Shown piece by piece: positions 647-19,218 of a stretch of 64,000 nt of DNA. Origin of the DNA: an archaeon (GTDB lineage: Archaea > Nanobdellota > Nanobdellia > Pacearchaeales > GW2011-AR1); NCBI GenBank assembly GCA_043821585.1, contig JBDRCQ010000002.1, positions 133,969 through 197,968 on the forward strand. Direction: 5' to 3'. Made by a program: the position numbers and the translations under genes. Under the pieces are notes generated by a model. The model saw only the letters and a program-made list of their open reading frames with translations. It searched no databases and had not been told where the DNA came from. How positions within the stretch are numbered: the stretch's first letter is position 1; each line of letters opens with the position of its first letter.

Positions 647-1189
647 TTATTCTTCTTTTTGATTGCGATCCCAGATTATCTTTTTATTGAAGTTATATAG
701 GCCCATCTTTTCCATACCTTCGAACTGATCTTCTGAGAGCTCTACGTGCTGGATCTTGAAGTGGTACTTTTCATCTATTTCCTCTATTATTTCCGCTAGT
801 TTTTCTGAGGGTACTGGATTTCCTACAATTATGACTTTCGCTCCGTCATCTGTTCTTGATTCTAGGATAACTCTTTTTATCTTGGGAACGTCCTTTATTC
901 TTTCTATAAAGTCTGTGATGTGTTCTTCCTTTTTTAGCAGACGATTTAACGCGATTGTTTTCTCGCCCTGCTTTAGCTTGTAGAATTTTGACTTGCCCAT
1001 ATAGGTTATTTCCACTATGTCTTTTTTGACGAGTCTTTCAAGTATTCTTAGGGTGGTTGCTACGTTCACTTTTGACATAGAAGATGTTTGTGTTAGAGAA
1101 AAATGTTTTTCAGGTTCTTCCAAAAAAATGTTAATTATCTTGATTATCTTCTCGTCGAATAAATCTCTTAAAACATCGGATTTTTTCAT
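647..1189 (-). CDS. winged-helix transcriptional regulator (MarR/TrmB-like N-terminal wHTH)
   Basis: 180-aa ORF. The N-terminal segment FSLTQTSSMSKVNVATTLRILERLVKKDIVEI...KFYKL has an HTH plus wing pattern. Confidence 0.5.
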   Translation of the reverse strand: MKKSDVLRDLFDEKIIKIINIFLEEPEKHFSLTQTSSMSKVNVATTLRILERLVKKDIVEITYMGKSKFYKLKQGEKTIALNRLLKKEEHITDFIERIKDVPKIKRVILESRTDDGAKVIIVGNPVPSEKLAEIIEEIDEKYHFKIQHVELSEDQFEGMEKMGLYNFNKKIIWDRNQKEE

Positions 1190-1433: not shown

Positions 1434-1886
1434 ATGGTGACAAAAAAAGACTTCGTTGGGATGATCTTGGTTGGATTGATCTTAGTTGCTTCGGTTTGGT
1501 TCTTCCAGCCGGTTTTGGCTCTTGATCCTACAGGTGCTTCTGTTACTGACGTTAGGACTGAAACTGCTCCTGCGGACACAGCGGGGAATGATTCTGCCTT
1601 GGCGGGGAATATATCTGAGTTGACGATTACAGCGTACACTACTACGCAGACCTGGCAGGGTTATATAGGTAACATTTCCGGCGTTATCCAGTTGGCTGAT
1701 GGGGATGATGATGTTTTATACAACTGGTCTTTGGCAGATCCGGAAGGGGAAATTTATGCTACTACTAATGCAAGTGTGAATTGGAGTTTGATGAACCTGC
1801 TCATTCCATCATTACTTCCGACTGGATTTTGGGCGATTTTATTGGGACTGAAATTGGAGTCATGTGTGAACAATATGAGATTGTAG
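1434..1886 (+). CDS. signal/TM-bearing N-terminal fragment, probably the true N-terminus of the 1781-4120 Hint-domain protein (frame-disrupted)
   Basis: KK followed by the hydrophobic helix GMILVGLILVASVWFF. The ORF overlaps the next ORF by about 105 nt in the -1 frame. Adding one G at TGG 1782-1784 joins ...NASVNW to EFDEPAH... Confidence 0.5.
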   Translation: MVTKKDFVGMILVGLILVASVWFFQPVLALDPTGASVTDVRTETAPADTAGNDSALAGNISELTITAYTTTQTWQGYIGNISGVIQLADGDDDVLYNWSLADPEGEIYATTNASVNWSLMNLLIPSLLPTGFWAILLGLKLESCVNNMRL

Positions 1887-4120
1887 ATGCTTATGTAATA
1901 AGGGATCATGGATCTGTTCATTTTGAGATGTTTTCAGATACGGGTAGAAGTGCTCTTCTGTTTGAAGGAGAAGAGATCCCTTATATGCTTGGAAATGAAG
2001 TATTATATACCGTTTCGTTAGGTTCTGTTAGTTATGAGGGGGCGGAATTTTATGTAAATGGGGAACACTTCTTTTTGGGTGAGCGTGATAGTTTTAGACT
2101 GAGTGATGGGAACTGGATGGCTGTTTTAGATATAGGTTATGTTGAGGGACATAGTTCTGTCGAATTTATCATTGGGGGGCATGCGATTGTGTTGGAGGAG
2201 GGTTCAGATATAGATGTTGATAGGGCATATATTGATGGTCTTAGGGCTGATTTTGAATACACCATTGATGAAAGTGCGAACAGGTTTTATCTTGAAGAAA
2301 TCAGTTTTGACTGGCGTGCGGATGAAGAACGATTTATTGCTTCCGATGTTGATTATTTGAAAATGCCATTTTTTGAGACGTTTGAGTTTGTGTGGGGTGG
2401 CTGGCGAGGGGTAGGGGTAGGGGACGAAAGTTTTGATATTGAGACTATTAATAATATTGTTGATTTGGATTCTGTTACTGTTAAAAATGGTCCCGCGGAT
2501 TTAGAAGTTTTATATTCTGATGAAGGCTCTGATGTGTGGAGTGGAATTGGAGAACGTCCGACAGAAAGATTGGCCACTTCTAATACTAATGAGCTGACTT
2601 TTTATGAAAAGAAAGACGGGTTTGATTATGATAAATGGTTTGTTGCTTCTTGGAGGGATGAGCAAAATGCAGAGTCTTATTTGGTAAAAGCGGAAATTTA
2701 TCGCGATTCTGTGAGCGAGAGAGATGTGGCTGGTTTTTTCCTTTGGGGTGATGATGGCTGGGAACAGGCGGTTTGTTCCGGGATGGTTGAAGGAGAGGTT
2801 TGTGCGGTTGGTGATTTGACTTTGACTATTGAAGAAATCTATTATGAAGCCGGGGGAGATGAGTGGGTTGCGTTATCAATCAATGAAGGGGGAAATTTTC
2901 AGAGACTCTATACTGGGGAGGGGTTGACTATTCACTTACCTGTTGAATGTTGTGGCACGCCAGAGTATAGCTGTCCGGAGATTGGTAGTGTATGCTTGGG
3001 AAGGGATGACGAGTTTAGTTTATGGTTTACAGAGGAGAATATTGAAGGGGCTGTTGGAACCGGTGAGGATTTTTATGCAATGTTTAGGGCGATGGAAGAT
3101 GATGTGGGACTTAGTTACTTTGGACCTCCTGGAGAAATTCAGTTTTATGAGGCTGGAGATAGTGGAATTTATGAAGCGTATGTGTATTCTCCTTTGGCGA
3201 CAAAAATATTTTGGCGTTCAAATAATTCTTTGAGTCCTGCACAGATTATTTACCCTGGTGAAGAGTCTCTTGCTTCAGTTTATCTTAGAGGGGTGTGCGA
3301 GTGTGAAGGCGGTGTCGTTTCTATGAAAATGTCTAGCGAATCGATGCATCCAGTAGGATTAGTAGAATTTGGTTGTGGTGATGGCTCTGTCGATGATGCC
3401 GTGGAGGAATGCGATGATGGTGACGATAGTGATACTTATTATTTGGAAGATTCGAGTGATGCGGATGGGCCTTGTGTTCTTGATGATTCGTATCCAGCTA
3501 GGTCTTGCAAGCTGAATGTTTGTGGCGATGGTTACAAATATCCAAAGGGTCTCGATGGCGTAAGGGGGACGGAAGATGATGAAGAGTGCGATGATGGAAA
3601 TCTTGTTGATTGTGATGGTTGTAGTGATTCCTGCAAGGCAGAGGATTGCGGGGACGGAAAGTGTTGTCCTCATGAGAGGGGCGCTTGTGCGTTAGATTGT
3701 GAAACTTGTTTTGTTGCGGGAACAAAAGTTTTAGTTAACGGAATAGAAAAGAATATCGAAGATATTCTAGTTGGCGAGAGTGTTGTTTCGTTTGGAAATG
3801 GATTGGAGAGTTCTGGTGTGTTGCAGACGTTTGTTCATGATGTTTCTGGTTATCTTTTGATAAACGGGAAACTGAAGGTTACTGCTGAGCATCCGATGAT
3901 GATTAACGGGGCGTGGAGGAAGATTGGCGAGGCAGAGGTTGGAGATGTTTTGCAGACTCTGACTGGGGATGAGAAGATTTGGAATATTCGGAAAGTTGAT
4001 GAACGAGTGAAGGTTTATAATTTGGAAGTTGCAGAGAATCATAATTATTTTGCTGAAGGGTATTTAGTTCATAATAAGCCGCCCTTGGTAGAAGATGAAC
4101 CAAAAGGTCCTGAGAATTAG
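1781..4120 (+). CDS. secreted cysteine-rich-repeat protein with C-terminal Hint (intein/hedgehog-like) domain
   Basis: CGDG...EECDDGN...CDGCSDSC repeats lie at about 3360-3700. The Hint blocks span 3707-4075: CFVAGTKVLV, TAEHP and VYNLEVAENHNYFAEGYLVHN, followed by KPP... and TAG. Confidence 0.8.
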   Translation: MEFDEPAHSIITSDWILGDFIGTEIGVMCEQYEIVDAYVIRDHGSVHFEMFSDTGRSALLFEGEEIPYMLGNEVLYTVSLGSVSYEGAEFYVNGEHFFLGERDSFRLSDGNWMAVLDIGYVEGHSSVEFIIGGHAIVLEEGSDIDVDRAYIDGLRADFEYTIDESANRFYLEEISFDWRADEERFIASDVDYLKMPFFETFEFVWGGWRGVGVGDESFDIETINNIVDLDSVTVKNGPADLEVLYSDEGSDVWSGIGERPTERLATSNTNELTFYEKKDGFDYDKWFVASWRDEQNAESYLVKAEIYRDSVSERDVAGFFLWGDDGWEQAVCSGMVEGEVCAVGDLTLTIEEIYYEAGGDEWVALSINEGGNFQRLYTGEGLTIHLPVECCGTPEYSCPEIGSVCLGRDDEFSLWFTEENIEGAVGTGEDFYAMFRAMEDDVGLSYFGPPGEIQFYEAGDSGIYEAYVYSPLATKIFWRSNNSLSPAQIIYPGEESLASVYLRGVCECEGGVVSMKMSSESMHPVGLVEFGCGDGSVDDAVEECDDGDDSDTYYLEDSSDADGPCVLDDSYPARSCKLNVCGDGYKYPKGLDGVRGTEDDEECDDGNLVDCDGCSDSCKAEDCGDGKCCPHERGACALDCETCFVAGTKVLVNGIEKNIEDILVGESVVSFGNGLESSGVLQTFVHDVSGYLLINGKLKVTAEHPMMINGAWRKIGEAEVGDVLQTLTGDEKIWNIRKVDERVKVYNLEVAENHNYFAEGYLVHNKPPLVEDEPKGPEN

Positions 4121-4141
4121 TTTTTTGTTTTAGATAGTTTT
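4121..4141 (+). terminator. T-rich 3' flank (TTTTTTGTTTTAGATAGTTTT), duplicated after the paralog at 5249-5270
   Basis: Oligo-T tracts sit directly after the stop codon. A near-identical string follows the second Hint gene. Archaeal terminators are oligo-T. Confidence 0.35.
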
Positions 4142-4167
4142 AAAAAAGAGTATTTTGTTGTTTTTTC

Positions 4168-4272
4168 ATGGTAGTAAGAGAATTAGCGCTTGGCGGATTA
4201 GGATGGTTACTTGGGGCAGGGGTTTTGGGGGGATGTCCTGTTGTTGAGGATTTGAAGAAGGGAATAGTTTGA
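4168..4272 (+). CDS. lipobox-like signal peptide fragment (MVVRELALGGLGWLLGAGVLGGC...) of the second Hint protein
   Basis: Short ATG ORF ending at TGA 4270-4272. One extra G in GGG 4260-4262 fuses it in frame to the 4269 ORF (…KKGNSLTEVK…). Confidence 0.4.
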   Translation: MVVRELALGGLGWLLGAGVLGGCPVVEDLKKGIV

Positions 4273-5266
4273 CAGAAGTTAAAGCAGAGTTGTGGGTTTA
4301 TGACACTATTGATCGCGAATATTATTTGGATGTTATAAATCTTGGTGATTTGAATGCTCAAGAAGTTGAGAGTGTTCAATTTTATTATGATCAATTTACA
4401 GATGATAGAGTCTATGATTTGACCTTGCATGTAGAAGGTGTTGATTCTGTAAGAGGTGATGACCCTAGACGTTCAATAATGTTTTCAGTTAGTGTGGGAG
4501 ATGTTCCGGAGTGTTCTGATAAAATAGATAATCCTTATTTTGGGAGGCCGAATGGAAATGAGCGATGTGACGAGAGGGATTCTAATTGTTTAATTGGAGA
4601 AGATGGAGATCCATATTGCGATGGAAGTGATGATTTGCTTGAGGGTTTGACCTGTTCTAATGAGGAGAAGGTAGAAGGTTGTAGAATTTATAAGATGCGT
4701 TACGATTGTGAAGCCGACCTTTGTAATGTTAAGAACTATCTAAGTTTGCGAGATGCTTGTGTGTGGAAGGGTATGGATGGGTGTGGTCTGCCAGAGATAC
4801 AATGTTTTGATGAGGGAACGAAGATAAAGATGTTTGATGGAACAGAGAAATATATTGAAGATGTTGAGGAAGGTGATTCTGTTTTAAGTTATGATTTGGA
4901 AAGCGGAATGAATGTCGAAGGAGTTGTTGAGAAAGTGTTTGTGCATGATTATGCCGGAGAGTTGTTGGAGATTGCCGGGATGGGAGTAACGCCTGAGCAT
5001 CCTGTTTTTGTGAATGGGGATTGGGTTGAGGCTGGGGAGATAGTTGTGGGAGATAGGTTGTCTGACGTGGAAGTCAAGAGTGTAGAGGAGAATCATTTCG
5101 AGGGGAATGTCTATAATTTACATGTTGGGAAGTTCAGAATTATTATGCCGAAGGAAATCTTGTGCATAACAAGCCACCTATGGGGTTTGAGCAGAAAGGG
5201 ATGTTTAGTCCTCCTGTAGAAAAAGGTTTTTGGGAAAGGGTGTTGGAGTTTTTTGGTTTTAGATAG
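4269..5266 (+). CDS. second cysteine-rich / C-terminal Hint-domain protein (shorter paralog; frame disrupted near 5127)
   Basis: Hint blocks CFDEGTKIKM, TPEHP and VYNLHVG are present. After a -1 shift at GGG 5127-5129 the sequence reads EVQNYYAEGNLVHNKPP..., ending at TAG 5264-5266. The uninterrupted track ORF is 4269-5219. Confidence 0.7.
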
Positions 5267-5353
5267 TTTTGTAATTTAGGGTAAAAGCCGACGGTGAATT
5301 TCTATCCAAAAGGTTTATAAATAAAATGTTCTTACTGGATGTAGACAAATACA

Positions 5354-5917
5354 ATGGGTCTATTTAAGAGAAAAGAGGTGCCAGCAGAATTGCCGAGTCT
5401 TGCGGTTGACGAGGTTAAGAGAGTTGATCCTTCGCCTAGTCTTGTTCCGCAGCCCCAACCACAAGTTCATATCAGGGAGCAACCGGTTTCTTATAAGCCC
5501 TTGCCTGTTGCTGAGACACCTAAATCTGATAACGCGAGTGGAACTGTTTCCGGCAAAGATGAAAGCGGATACTTTAAGAATCTAGTTAAGAGTATTACCG
5601 AGGAGACGGAGGATTTGGACAAGCTGAGTTCTTGGTATAAGAATAAGTTTATGCCCGGAGATATGGTTTTTCAGATGAGGGAATATTGGCAGAAGCAGCA
5701 GCCTGAGTTGATGTTGAAGAATATCAGTGGGGAGTTGAAGCAGAAGTTGGCTGGGAAGACTGAAAAGTTGCATGCGCTTGAGAAAGAATGGCAGGAAGTT
5801 TACTTTAATTTGTTGAGCAAGGAGGAGGAGATTAGGAAGGAGGAGAAGGAGCTGAAAGATTCTTTGGCGGAGTTTATTGGTATGTTGAAGGGACCTCTTG
5901 GGAAAGAGGATAAGTAG
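5354..5917 (+). CDS. hypothetical protein with charged, coiled-coil-like C-terminal half
   Basis: 187-aa ATG ORF. It has a P/Q-rich N-terminus and an E/K-rich heptad-like C-terminus. No family was recognised. Confidence 0.45.
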   Translation: MGLFKRKEVPAELPSLAVDEVKRVDPSPSLVPQPQPQVHIREQPVSYKPLPVAETPKSDNASGTVSGKDESGYFKNLVKSITEETEDLDKLSSWYKNKFMPGDMVFQMREYWQKQQPELMLKNISGELKQKLAGKTEKLHALEKEWQEVYFNLLSKEEEIRKEEKELKDSLAEFIGMLKGPLGKEDK

Positions 5918-6471: not shown

Positions 6472-6834
6472 ATGCCTAGGAGTAAGAAGCATAAGCCTGA
6501 TAAAAAAGGTGGGAAGCGGAAGAAAAGGTCGTTGTTAATAGGGATTGTTCTGATTGTGCTTTTGGCGGTTTTGGTGCTGTTGGTTCCTGTTTTGCTTTAC
6601 CAGCTTGGTTTGGTTAATAATCCTTTTACTAATCTGCATTTTCAGCCGAAGGAGTTTATTGTTAAGGATGAGTGTGCGATGATTGTTGGAAATTTGATTC
6701 ATCCTATTCAGGATGAGGGAATTTGTGAGCAAAGGTGCAAAATGGATTGTGATGTTAGAGGGTTATTTTTCTACGATTTTGAATTTACAGAAAGTGTGGG
6801 TGATTGCCACACATGTAAATGCCGTTGCAGATAA
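6472..6834 (+). CDS. small membrane-anchored cysteine-rich protein
   Basis: It has a basic N-terminus and one TM helix (LLIGIVLIVLLAVLVLLVPVLL). The C-terminal domain contains 8 Cys. Confidence 0.5.
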   Translation: MPRSKKHKPDKKGGKRKKRSLLIGIVLIVLLAVLVLLVPVLLYQLGLVNNPFTNLHFQPKEFIVKDECAMIVGNLIHPIQDEGICEQRCKMDCDVRGLFFYDFEFTESVGDCHTCKCRCR

Positions 6835-8190: not shown

Positions 8191-11064
8191 TTAGTTCAGC
8201 TCAAAGTAAAAGTAAACATTAGACGTTTCTGTTTTGTCGTACTCTCTGAGTTTGACTGGCAGCTGTATTTCATAGTCGTATGTGCCGTGGTCTCCGGGCT
8301 TGCCTTTGTTGAATGGGCTCATGAAAACAAGGTCTTCTTCATCAACTGTGCCGTATTCTGAATCTGTGTCATCGTCGCTGTCCCAGAGTATTCCTGTTTT
8401 GAAGTTGCCGTTTTCTGAGGAGTCTATGATGGGGATGTTGGTTACTGTTTGTTTTCTTATGATGGTGGAGGTGTAGCCTAATGGTGGCCAGCCGCCTGTG
8501 GTGAATGTGTTTGCTACTGAGTCAGTGAAGTTTGTTGTGTTAAGGAGAATATCTATTTCCGTAAAGTCATCTGTTGCGTTGTTTCCAGAGAGATCTTGGC
8601 CTATTGCTTTTAGAGATGCCCAGTTGATGTTACTCTCTGTGTCTGCTACGAAGATGCTTCCTGTCAAAGAGGTCTCGTTCTCCCAGACAGTGACGTTTTC
8701 TATTGAGGAAGAAGCGAGTATTTTAGTTATCGTTGCGTTTCCATAGAAATCCTGCCAGGAGTTTATGTCAATTGAGCGATTCGCTCTGTTGTTTGTTTCG
8801 TTGAGTTCGTTTACTGTGCCGTTTGTTGCTAGAGGAGGGTCTAGGATTACATGAATTGTGTGTGGGCCGATTGTTGTGGTGAAGTTTATCGAGGCAACCG
8901 CTGTTCCTCCAAGCTCTGAAATTAGGAGGGACTGATTTGATCCAATTTGTATACCGTTCGTGTCTGGGTCTCCGTCGAAGAATTGCACCTTAACAGTTCC
9001 CTCTTGGCCGCCGATATTGTAAATTGTTGCGTTTATTGTCATGTTTGTTCCTTCGATAGTTGTTGCGTTATCGAAATCTATGTCTGTGGAGTTTAGAGTG
9101 AAATCTGGGGGGACTATCATATAGAACCATTCGTCTTCTGCTGTAAAGCCCACGTTGTTGATTGTGTCGTTACAGCGGACATTCCATTTTATCCAAGTGT
9201 TTTCTGTGAAACCAGATATTGTAAATGTGTTTTCTCCGCTTGGGTTGTATGCTTTTGTTTCTTCTAACGTGAAGAGGCCTGACTGGTCGTGGAAGATTGA
9301 ACACGAGTCAACTCCAGAGGGGTCTGTCGCCGTGTAATTTACTGTTATTGAGACTCCGAAGTTGGTTGTTCCGTTTTCAGGGAAACCAAGGATCACATCA
9401 GGTGGACGGAAGTCTATTTCAAATTCATAATAACCTGAAAGATTGTTCCCTAAGCCGTCTTGCATGATTGTTCCATTTGGTGATATGAACGCGGCGAATG
9501 CTCTGTAGATTCCTCCCGGATTGGAGTCTGTGTTAAATCCAGAGCCTTCTCCAGGGCCATTCCAGATGTTTGTTAGGTTGAGGGTTTCTCCAGCATTGAT
9601 CTCTCTTCTTTTTCCGGTTGTTGTGTCATTGACGATTGTCTCAAAGTTTTCCCAGTATCCTGATGAATTTGATAAGACCGATAAAAGAAGGTGGCCGCTT
9701 ATCGGTGTTGAGCCAGTATTGTTTATGATTGAAGGATTGTATGCGGTGGATGTGGCGTTTGGCCATTGAACGACTTCACAGTGGAATGTGTGGGAGGGGT
9801 CGCCGTTTCCTTCCTGGCCTCTTTCACAGTAGAAGGTGTCTTCGTCTAAGAGGTAACACGGATATTCTCCTTTAGCGTGGTTGTTTCCTTCCCCATTGTT
9901 GTAGAGTGAATAGGCGCAGAATCCAAGGGTTTTGTTTAAGTCGTCAACAGGATTTGAAAAAGAGGTATCAAACTGTAGGATGTTGCTGATTTCGGCTCCA
10001 GGGACGTGGTGCTCTACTTCTTCATTTCTGCCGCCTGGAAATTCTATAACGTATGCGACACATTCCTGGTTGGATGCTTCTGTAGTTCCTAATCCAGAGG
10101 TTAAGCAAGTTACGCTGCTGGTTCCATCCAAGTAACATTCTATATTTGCATGTTCTATTCCATCTCCGTCTGATTGGCAGCTGTAAATAAGCCAGGACTT
10201 GTCTCTGTTTACTGAGTGGCCGATACCTACTGTTGTTCCGGAATCGAAATGTGTTGATCCCAAATGAACTGGGGTGACGTTGGTTTCGTCGTTGAAACAG
10301 ACGACCTGTGCCTCTACAACTGAAACTCCGCAAGCAGTGTTGTCTCTTTGTAGATTGAGGTTTGTGGTGCTTGTTATATTGGCCATAACTTTTTGTTCTT
10401 CTGAACAAGTGTTAGTGCCAGAGCTTGCTTCTACGTTGTGGCGGGTTGAGACGAAACATTTTTCTTGGTAGTTTGAGGGGAGAGGTACATCACAGGACGC
10501 TAGAGAAACGTCTTCATTGCCGTCTGCGTTGGGCATCGTGTGGGAAATATGGCAGACGTCTATGTTATCTGATTGTAGGACGCTGTATGAATTGATCATT
10601 ATTCCTGTTGTGGATCCACGCTCTGCTGTTAGTTCTGATGAGTAGCCGTTTGAGATTGAGGAGAAGTATACGCGTCCGAGCCTGACATTAGGATCTTCTG
10701 TTGATGCTGCTCTAACTTGCGAGTCTGCTACGATGAATGTTTTGTTTATTTGGTACGTGTTACTTAGAGAATCTGTGCTGCTTGTAACTCCAGAGGTTAC
10801 CATGAATCCCTGTTCTGCTTGGACGTTGAAACTCACTATTGTGTAAGTTGTGTCGGTAATGTTTACTATTTCGTTAGGTATATATGCATTTTTATTTGTT
10901 TTTAGTGCTGTTGTGAGATTTGATTCTGCGAAGAAGTTTCCCATTGTGAGAGTTTGATTTGAGAAACCCGCGGTGTTGTTTGCCCAAATTGTGTAGTTGT
11001 AAGTTCCTTGGTACCAAGTTTGGGTAAAGTTATACTCGAATTGGCTGCCCCCTATTGGAGTCAT
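8191..11064 (-). CDS. giant NxS/T-rich surface (adhesin-like) protein with CARDB-like domain and conserved C-terminal module; N-terminus missing
   Basis: 957-aa ORF from the first ATG. It has a CARDB-like segment (…IYNIGGQEGTVKVQFFDGDP…NELNETNNRANRSIDI). Its C-terminal roughly 190 aa is paralogous to the end of the 11363-17473 protein. No signal peptide is present. Confidence 0.8.
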   Translation of the reverse strand: MTPIGGSQFEYNFTQTWYQGTYNYTIWANNTAGFSNQTLTMGNFFAESNLTTALKTNKNAYIPNEIVNITDTTYTIVSFNVQAEQGFMVTSGVTSSTDSLSNTYQINKTFIVADSQVRAASTEDPNVRLGRVYFSSISNGYSSELTAERGSTTGIMINSYSVLQSDNIDVCHISHTMPNADGNEDVSLASCDVPLPSNYQEKCFVSTRHNVEASSGTNTCSEEQKVMANITSTTNLNLQRDNTACGVSVVEAQVVCFNDETNVTPVHLGSTHFDSGTTVGIGHSVNRDKSWLIYSCQSDGDGIEHANIECYLDGTSSVTCLTSGLGTTEASNQECVAYVIEFPGGRNEEVEHHVPGAEISNILQFDTSFSNPVDDLNKTLGFCAYSLYNNGEGNNHAKGEYPCYLLDEDTFYCERGQEGNGDPSHTFHCEVVQWPNATSTAYNPSIINNTGSTPISGHLLLSVLSNSSGYWENFETIVNDTTTGKRREINAGETLNLTNIWNGPGEGSGFNTDSNPGGIYRAFAAFISPNGTIMQDGLGNNLSGYYEFEIDFRPPDVILGFPENGTTNFGVSITVNYTATDPSGVDSCSIFHDQSGLFTLEETKAYNPSGENTFTISGFTENTWIKWNVRCNDTINNVGFTAEDEWFYMIVPPDFTLNSTDIDFDNATTIEGTNMTINATIYNIGGQEGTVKVQFFDGDPDTNGIQIGSNQSLLISELGGTAVASINFTTTIGPHTIHVILDPPLATNGTVNELNETNNRANRSIDINSWQDFYGNATITKILASSSIENVTVWENETSLTGSIFVADTESNINWASLKAIGQDLSGNNATDDFTEIDILLNTTNFTDSVANTFTTGGWPPLGYTSTIIRKQTVTNIPIIDSSENGNFKTGILWDSDDDTDSEYGTVDEEDLVFMSPFNKGKPGDHGTYDYEIQLPVKLREYDKTETSNVYFYFELN

Positions 11065-18616: not shown

Positions 18617-19218
18617 TATTTCTTAGCTCCTTTTTTGGTTGGAGATTCTGACTTTTTTGCAGCCTTTTTTGCGGCAGATTCTTTCTTTTTCTTGTCTTCG
18701 TCTAACCATTGTAATTTTCCTAAACCTGCTTGTCGCATTGTCATGCCAATTTTTGGCATTCCTGCTTTGTAGCTTATTGCAACAACTCTTGCTAAGCAGT
18801 CGTCTCCTTTTGCAAGGGATCTCTTTGAGGATTTTCCAGAAAGTGTTCCAGTTTTATTTAGAGAAACGTAGTCTTCCATTGTCTGGGAGATGTGTATCAT
18901 CCCTCTTGCTGGACCGACTTGCATGAATGCGCCGAAGTTTGTTATCTCGGAGACTGTTCCGTAAACTAGCTCGTGCAATTCTGGTTTCCAGGTTAGGATT
19001 TTGAACCTCGAGTTATAGTACGCGGCGCCGTCTCCAGGGATTATCACGCCTTCGTCTATATCCCCGATTTCTAAAACTGCCATTACATAACCAAGTTCTT
19101 TTGTTACAGAATCAACGAAATTCTCGTTTAGCTGCTTTTCTACTGCTTCGTGAGTAGGCAGGCCGAAGTGTTTCGGTTCAACTCTTACATGATCTTCAAC
19201 ATCCAGGATATAGAACAT
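18616..19218 (-). CDS. rpoE1: DNA-directed RNA polymerase subunit E' (Rpo7) with S1 domain
   Basis: The N-terminus MFYILDVEDHVRVEPKHFG and the S1-like segment GTVSEITNFGAFMQVGPARGMIHISQ match Rpo7. It is the first gene of the cluster. Confidence 0.9.
   Translation of the reverse strand: MFYILDVEDHVRVEPKHFGLPTHEAVEKQLNENFVDSVTKELGYVMAVLEIGDIDEGVIIPGDGAAYYNSRFKILTWKPELHELVYGTVSEITNFGAFMQVGPARGMIHISQTMEDYVSLNKTGTLSGKSSKRSLAKGDDCLARVVAISYKAGMPKIGMTMRQAGLGKLQWLDEDKKKKESAAKKAAKKSESPTKKGAKK

Follow-up and report, generated by a model that had tools for sequence, protein, structure and literature searches.

Putative autoprocessing Hint domains at the ends of two paralogous surface-protein genes of a DPANN-type archaeon

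Introduction

What could a Hint domain do at the very end of a surface protein? The question is raised by region 1434-5270 of a 64,000-nucleotide stretch of archaeal DNA (contig JBDRCQ010000002.1; hereafter the window, to which all coordinates refer). The original prediction, made from the sequence alone, had described this region as two tandem genes for exported cysteine-rich proteins, each ending in a non-splicing intein- or hedgehog-like domain that might release the ectodomain or attach it covalently to a lipid or surface acceptor. In our analysis, the region probably comprises two neighbouring paralogous surface-protein genes of a DPANN-type archaeon, A and B, situated on the same strand, and to about the same degree it seems probable that an autoprocessing Hint of the bacterial-intein-like A (BIL-A) / pretoxin-HINT class closes each of them. 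Neither gene, however, is a single open reading frame (ORF): there are three one-base frame breaks within 3.8 kb, and gene A is a chimera, so the picture of intact tandem genes, which had overlooked both features, does not hold.

The Hint domains and their class

A six-frame motif scan finds only two Hint modules in the window, at 3707-4075 and 4803-5170, and we consider the modules in both genes real. Hint domain A (aa 643-765 of gene A, + strand) has Cys1 at 3707-3709, T-A-E-H at 3881-3892 and His-Asn at 4070-4075. Hint domain B starts from Cys1 at 4803 (+) and has T-P-E-H at 4989-5000, both in frame 0, and His-Asn at 5165-5170 in frame 2. Thus, the predicted N-terminal Cys, T-x-x-H and terminal His-Asn (LVHN) are confirmed in both genes, and so is the Lys in position +1 following them. 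Hint A matches PT-HINT (PF07591) at 34.6 bits (cut-off 27.7) and intein_Cterm (TIGR01443) at 25.5 bits (cut-off 15.6), whereas Hint B, as it stands in the assembly, gives 36.8 bits with Vint and 32.0 bits with PT-HINT. The AlphaFold model of Hint A has a predicted local distance difference test score (pLDDT) of 91.2. Foldseek finds 64 matches to this model in PDB at E <= 0.001, and all 50 of those listed are Hint-fold proteins. The expected membership in the Hint family is hence borne out by both profile and predicted fold.

For the class of the domain we relied on comparison with PDB sequences. In a single-sequence search, the BIL domain of Clostridium thermocellum (2LWY) comes out on top, being aligned end to end (E 7e-8). 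A Hint profile built from 23 relatives gives E-values of 2e-30 for 2LWY, 1.5e-29 for 8W20 and 4e-24 for the Tetrahymena BIL2 domain; for true inteins the values are 5e-13 or weaker, and for Sonic hedgehog, 7e-4. The 8W20 entry is a 1368-aa Hint-containing chain deposited as 'Intein C-terminal splicing domain-containing protein'. In the structural comparison the best matches are BIL2 (6Y75; template modelling score, TM, 0.84; E 7.6e-10) and 2LWY (TM 0.81), while the C-terminal domain of hedgehog (HhC) takes rank 38. Across the 23 aligned relatives the catalytic C, T, H, Y and N are invariant and the H-N pair is nearly so. By profile and predicted fold, the domain is of the BIL-A / pretoxin-HINT class and is neither an intein nor of the hedgehog type. 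In its broad outline the original prediction is upheld here: the domain is a non-intein, bacterial-intein-like Hint, and it forms the C-terminal end of exported-type proteins whose genes lie among other archaeal surface-protein genes.

Each of the related systems shares only a part of these features. The A-type BIL domains, as described by Amitai et al. 2003 and Dassa et al. 2004 in so far as these are cited in PMC7765530, and as seen in 2LWY, have the same Cys1, T-x-x-H and terminal His-Asn; they likewise lack a nucleophilic +1 residue and reside in variable, non-conserved secreted hosts. The domains considered here differ in that the host is archaeal, the domain is situated at the end of the protein with 14-31 aa after it (in one relative, 1 aa), position +1 is occupied by a conserved Lys, and DUF4215 cysteine repeats regularly precede. 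Resemblance to the pretoxin HINT domains (PF07591; Zhang et al. 2012, PMC3482391) consists in a score above the gathering threshold, a secreted multidomain protein, the name given to gene A by NCBI, and the 8W20 match; in contrast to them, there is no toxin domain after the Hint, no recognisable immunity gene and no toxin-delivery domains. BIL2 from the BUBL1 polyubiquitin-like locus of Tetrahymena thermophila (6Y75, 6TMM; PMC8616854), the best structural match, ends its reaction in an amide bond to a lysine amine and therefore provides a precedent for a role of the +1 Lys, although it is eukaryotic and cytosolic, has ubiquitin-like flanks and only 22-24% identity, and its lysine is not stated to be in position +1.

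Could these domains simply be true inteins, that is, mobile self-splicing elements? The class 1 mini-inteins (Mtu RecA, gp41-1) do have the same fold and the catalytic blocks A, B and G, but they interrupt conserved hosts and need a +1 Cys, Ser or Thr. Genes A and B lack all of this, having neither a conserved host protein nor such a +1 residue, and neither a C-extein domain nor a homing endonuclease; the profile favours BIL over inteins by about 17 orders of magnitude. We give this explanation practically no credence.

Recurrence of the terminal layout

An exhaustive search of 1.84 billion representatives yielded 9,341 proteins at E <= 0.001, and the best 150 of these were analysed. Among them, Cys1 is present in all 279 domain starts (279/279), His-Asn in 264/269 ends, and the +1 Lys in 204/269 copies. 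The lysine is found in 31/43 terminal copies, in 78/90 copies directly preceding another Hint and in 94/135 others. In 43/126 representatives the last Hint is followed by <=35 aa, and one relative, located well within two independent contigs, ends in ...GYLVHNK-stop, its C-extein being a single lysine. DUF4215 repeats are found upstream of the Hint in seven of ten terminal-type relatives.

The closest relative of the gene A cassette comes from a metagenome-assembled genome (MAG) of Nanoarchaeota, with 63-70% identity over the cysteine repeat, the Hint and the tail (KPPLEPEDPEQYVY); there, the cassette is joined to a LamG-like domain and not to an S-layer-like one. The same cassette stands behind an S-layer-like core in gene A, another cysteine-rich body in gene B, a LamG-like domain in P0011, a beta-helix/PKD region in P0139, and others. 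These comparisons show the unit 'cysteine repeats, Hint, Lys, short tail' to act like a cassette that is added to the back of varied ectodomains, frequently in several genes close to one another. The layout is found across numerous uncultured lineages: the relatives include archaeal MAGs with the labels Nanoarchaeota and Euryarchaeota and a Paceibacterota bacterium from the candidate phyla radiation (CPR). The sequence clusters of the relatives yielded almost no taxonomy. Intact relatives lie on contigs whose names suggest the 0.1-µm fraction of Hainich groundwater, and one contig so named carries two terminal-Hint genes about 3.5 kb apart.

Several further observations concern the arrangement of these genes. 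On Hainich-named contigs, terminal-Hint genes have either another PT-HINT gene or DUF4215/DUF1554 genes in their vicinity (L029, 6001-8571 and 12050-13981; L028, 6001-7977 and 8424-11525), an arrangement mirroring the tandem pair in the window. One Paceibacterota (CPR) genome encodes a member of this Hint clade (L004, 6001-7113) directly upstream of type IV pilus genes (T2SSE, T2SSF, N_methyl pilin). Tandem arrays of two to five Hints are frequent in the relatives, the linker being K, then zero to four G, then C. The head-to-tail arrays comprise up to five or more Hints (P0012, P0017, P0018, P0023, P0024 and others); several of them begin within approximately 25-40 residues of the N-terminus and have 400-550 further residues after them.

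Searching the literature for Hint domains in S-layer proteins of archaea or in proteins of DPANN/CPR organisms, we found no paper with this architecture in archaea, in agreement with the original prediction, for which no characterisation in archaea was known. What is new is the cargo-less terminal placement of a BIL-A / PT-HINT domain, with a conserved +1 Lys, on archaeal surface proteins; the class of domain is known, and a generic automatic annotation already exists. The family-level pattern matters more than the locus itself, which is a poor exemplar because it is frame-disrupted.

Structure and integrity of gene A

Gene A consists of a 5' fragment, ORF1a (1434-1886, +; 150 aa), which bears a signal peptide, and a 779-aa ORF (1781-4120, +), the two being in different frames. 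The 779-aa body is 100% identical to the NCBI entry 'MAG: polymorphic toxin-type HINT domain-containing protein [archaeon]', which comes from a 201-kb contig. Its S-layer-like core (aa 23-502; 1847-3286, +) aligns with residues 192-686 of P0002 at 28% identity (E 2e-43). The archaeal proteins P0002-P0005 carry the S-layer family PF05124, which a Pfam scan of gene A itself did not list, and the first ~190 aa present in the homologues are absent from the S-layer-like part of gene A.

The core is followed by acidic cysteine-rich repeats (aa ~529-641; 3365-3706, +) with the pattern CGDG...EECDDG...C..C, matching DUF4215 at 27.8 bits (cut-off 27) and TIGR02232 at 23.2 bits (cut-off 20.8). Such repeats had been predicted upstream of both Hints; this is correct for gene A, whereas the corresponding region of gene B is cysteine-rich with no DUF4215 or TIGR02232 match. 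A scan of genome contigs with gene A finds only relatives of the repeats, in Myxococcota, Peribacteria and others. The repeats close with C-E-T immediately before Cys1. We note that C-E-T-C1 (3698-3709) forms a C-x-x-C motif across the N-terminal cleavage site; in P0155 the corresponding residues are C-C-T-C1, and the motif is not universal in the family. By analogy with the redox traps of engineered inteins, a disulfide bond to Cys1 could keep the reaction in check until it is reduced.

ORF1a belongs to a DPANN family whose members, found in Nanoarchaeota and unclassified archaeal MAGs, are secreted and standalone, have 230-294 aa when complete, correspond to no Pfam family, and share the motif TTQTWQGY.GN.SG and the C-terminal end ...YYFFVELE. 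According to tblastn, the homology of ORF1a is confined to aa 1-123 (nt 1434-1802), the remainder of the family sequence being absent. In the relatives, members of this family form tandem paralogues beside a conserved divergent gene of ~180 aa (L026, L027). In the window, the divergent neighbour at 647-1189 (-) has 55% identity to the gene beside an ORF1a-family gene in a relative, and the downstream genes of that relative's cluster are missing. We considered the possibility that ORF1a is the native N-terminus of an S-layer-type protein and rejected it, given that ORF1a does not resemble the N-termini of S-layer proteins and that its relatives stand alone. Since the junction at ~1785 coincides with the end of homology to both families, each of them truncated, gene A is, judging by these alignments, a chimera, and the junction is an out-of-frame rearrangement breakpoint.

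A side observation concerns the same family. In the 957-aa CARDB surface protein (8191-11064), tblastn detects similarity (E 1e-5) between the last ~190 residues (8197-8763, -) and residues 80-251 of the ORF1a family, and the protein ends in ...NVYFYFELN. Hence, the ORF1a-type domain also occurs as a C-terminal module of large surface proteins.

Structure and integrity of gene B

Gene B starts with a lipobox-like ORF (4168-4272, +; MVVRELALGGLGWLLGAGVLGGC...), which terminates at TGA 4270 and is followed in a different frame by the body, called as an ORF at 4269-5219; the break lies somewhere in 4248-4269. Signal- or lipobox-like N-termini had been predicted for both proteins, and such ORFs are indeed present, but out of frame with the bodies of genes A and B. 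The frame 0 part of the body (4269-5129, +) comprises a non-repeat cysteine-rich region and then Hint B up to the second break, at GGG 5127-5129. This break splits the domain: past ...NVYNLHVG nothing in frame 0 is related to the family any longer, and a change of frame is needed to read the block EVQNYYAEGNLVHNK, with EVQNYYAEGNLVHNKPP... in frame 2. The frame 2 part (5129-5266, +; EVQNYYAEGNLVHN) includes the His-Asn, the +1 Lys (5171-5173), a 31-aa tail and the stop codon TAG at 5264-5266. Of the two ORFs said to end in a complete Hint module, gene A does so and gene B does not.

Each of the three breaks can be mended by one added base. With one G added at GGG 5127-5129, Hint B becomes equal in length to Hint A, to which it is then 44% identical, and its PT-HINT score increases from 32.0 to 44.2 bits. 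Because the codons past the break still spell the family consensus NY[FY]AEGxLVHNKPP, the break is, on the evidence of these codons, recent or artefactual.

All three breaks could, then, be local assembly or consensus errors in a variable region, both genes being intact and expressed. In addition to the ease of repair and the restored consensus, the Hint B break is at a GGG run, the 5' break of gene B is bounded to a 22-nt stretch with short runs only, the break in gene A is at the rearrangement junction, and the signal-peptide ORFs are placed exactly where an exported cysteine-rich protein requires them. On the other hand, the remaining 60 kb of the window, 91% covered by ORFs that include those of 2036, 957 and 880 aa, contain no comparable break; the gene A junction, where the homologies of two different truncated families end, points to a real rearrangement; and the collections searched provided no close relative for comparison. 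In particular, an exact-DNA scan of metagenome contigs around the Hint B break, allowing for GGG or GGGN, gave no match, and a protein-based scan of these with repaired gene B gave no relative. We regard the assembly errors as a serious possibility that nevertheless falls short of being probable. Unless the breaks are artefacts of local assembly in a variable region, they are real and reflect decay, and the gene A and B copies in this genome may be inactive or decaying.

Two other explanations of the breaks were rejected. Stop-codon reassignment would not help, as in-frame readthrough of TGA 4270 does not continue the protein. For programmed frameshifting or phase variation, inspection showed no slippery heptamer, and the base runs at the breaks (<=3-4) are too short for contingency loci.

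Tails, flanks and the loss of a toxin

In gene A the tail past His-Asn has 14 aa, i.e. the +1 Lys and 13 further residues (KPPLVEDEPKGPEN; 4076-4117, +), followed by the stop codon at 4118-4120; its last ten residues (131-140 of the model) have a mean pLDDT of 47. The figure of about 14 residues given for both genes thus holds for gene A, while gene B has 31. Family scans gave no match for the tails, which differ by frame-changing indels. A C-terminal sorting signal of the PGF-CTERM type was dismissed on inspection, as the tails contain no transmembrane segment.

The claim of a 3' flank common to both genes stands: AGTTTTTT(G)GTTTTAGATAGTTTT follows each of them, the T-rich copies being situated at 4119-4141 (+), continuing into an A/T-rich stretch 5' of the gene B ATG, and at 5247-5270 (+), where the reading frame of gene B extends into the flank. 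The 15-nt core occurs nowhere else in the window, although 22/100 shuffles give >=2 matches at <=2 mismatches. The Hint-coding DNA of the two genes is only ~70% identical. We infer that the shared flank is an oligo-T terminator region left from the duplication. Presence at just these two sites speaks against a window-wide repeat role of the flank.

The pretoxin affinity of the domain suggests yet another history, in which the Hint once released a C-terminal toxin, now lost, and genes A and B are decayed polymorphic-toxin pseudogenes with no present function. PT-HINT is the best Pfam family and normally stands just ahead of a toxin domain (PMC3482391), NCBI names the product 'polymorphic toxin-type HINT', and the three breaks in 3.8 kb, the chimeric 5' end and the indels distinguishing the tails all fit such decay. 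Yet the cargo-less terminal layout is found in many intact, mutually distant genes that retain the catalytic residues and the +1 Lys, one of them ending in HNK-stop; DUF4215 repeats, and not toxin delivery domains, are what it is associated with; the neighbours gave no match to a toxin or immunity family; and the consensus maintained in gene B past its break indicates that the break is recent or an artefact. Overall, the loss of a toxin appears unlikely.

Possible mechanism

BIL domains without a +1 nucleophile still form the Cys1 thioester and undergo cyclisation of the terminal Asn (PMC7664689, PMC7765530), and they give 'predominantly cleaved products' (PMC7664689). N- and C-cleavage plus some ligation are reported for such domains in PMC7664689 and, to the extent given by PMC7765530 and the title of Dassa et al. 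2004 cited there, in the latter sources, while the own text of PMC7765530 holds that A-type BILs cannot ligate their flanks. The statement that splicing cannot occur without a +1 Cys, Ser or Thr was hence too strong: BILs lacking this residue mainly cleave but do ligate (PMC7664689, PMC7765530). In BIL2, the thioester is resolved by the epsilon-amine of a lysine, and the N-extein is conjugated to lysines of other proteins via an isopeptide bond (PMC8616854).

Judging from sequence and model, the Hint domains of genes A and B are most likely BIL-A/PT-HINT autoprocessing modules that cut the ectodomain off the Hint or pass it to an amine. After export, the Hint would fold and Cys1 would attack the preceding peptide bond, yielding a thioester, while cyclisation of the Asn would remove the tail. 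The thioester could then have two outcomes. If it is hydrolysed, the ectodomain would be separated from the Hint; if it is attacked by an amine, the +1 Lys being the obvious candidate, the Hint would be excised and the ectodomain capped by Lys and the tail. That His-Asn-Lys is strictly kept, even in the absence of any further residue, speaks for the importance of the C-terminal chemistry.

In the hedgehog-like version of the reaction, it would instead be an external lipid or cell-surface acceptor that attacks the thioester, the ectodomain becoming covalently anchored by its C-terminus. As in HhC (1AT0), the Hint is C-terminal in a secreted protein, Cys1 and T-x-x-H are intact, and the HhC reaction also begins with an N-to-S acyl shift. 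In HhC the terminal His-Asn is missing and the Hint is followed by a region for sterol recognition. In genes A and B there is no sterol- or acceptor-recruiting region past the Hint, just 14-31 aa, the last ten of which in gene A are modelled with low confidence, and hedgehog is a distant match by both structure and profile. The transfer of the BIL2 N-extein to lysines of other proteins (PMC8616854) does lend the idea some support. Since the hedgehog-type reaction needs neither His-Asn nor Lys, and both are strictly kept, a splice-like or Lys-directed reaction fits better. The hedgehog analogy of the original prediction is therefore the weakest one available, and transfer of this kind seems quite improbable.

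A bolder option concerns the lysine itself. Retention of Cys1, His-Asn and the +1 Lys even at a single-Lys C-extein could mark self-catalysed transamidation, by analogy with BIL2-mediated ubiquitin-like conjugation in Tetrahymena, which would be its precedent. A lysine amine would take over the C-terminal carbonyl of the ectodomain from the Cys1 thioester; the lysine could be the +1 residue of the protein itself or belong to another protein, of the surface or of a host cell. We consider this a long shot.

Returning to autoprocessing as such, several points weigh against it. In this clade it is a prediction from sequence and model, and it is hard to see what the excision or shedding of a terminal Hint would serve. 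With frame breaks in both genes and a chimeric gene A, it is doubtful that the modules function in this genome, and the locus may say nothing about function. The signal peptide and the lipobox were assigned by eye. Finally, the best 150 relatives were picked by similarity to a query containing the Lys and the tail, which slightly biases the sample toward Lys.

Genomic context

The neighbours of the locus are large surface proteins with Big_13, CARDB and Big_7 domains (Pfam), with housekeeping genes farther along. An Rpo7-type subunit is encoded at 18619-19218; since the labels of the relatives are also those of archaeal MAGs, the host organism is archaeal. Among the neighbours in the window, or beside the relatives examined, no toxin or immunity families were recognised. 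The ORF downstream of gene B (5354-5917) has no Pfam match and no recurrent small neighbour was seen in the relatives; as immunity families are diverse, an adjacent immunity gene may have escaped recognition. The ORFs on the opposite strand within genes A and B are short and, as the family evidence is on the + strand, are taken to be spurious.

The 120-aa ORF at 6472-6834 (+), which has no family match, is basic at its N-terminus, contains a single hydrophobic segment and is rich in cysteine towards its end (...CEQRCKMDCD...CHTCKCRCR). The GC skew is positive (G>C) in 31/32 two-kb bins of the window, although both strands carry genes, with maxima of 0.45-0.47 at 2-6 kb and 0.39-0.43 at 50-54 kb; the AT skew is negative (T>A) in 31/32 bins.

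Implications

The usual place of a BIL or pretoxin Hint is ahead of a cargo such as a toxin; here, it is found at the very end of surface proteins, with a conserved lysine after it. If transamidation took place, episymbiotic DPANN archaea and CPR bacteria would possess a means of covalent modification or attachment of surface proteins requiring neither sortase nor ATP. If the domains are active, they could also serve protein engineering as a compact self-cleaving or self-ligating tag, and they would constitute a widespread post-translational step in the building of the cell surface in very small host-dependent microbes.

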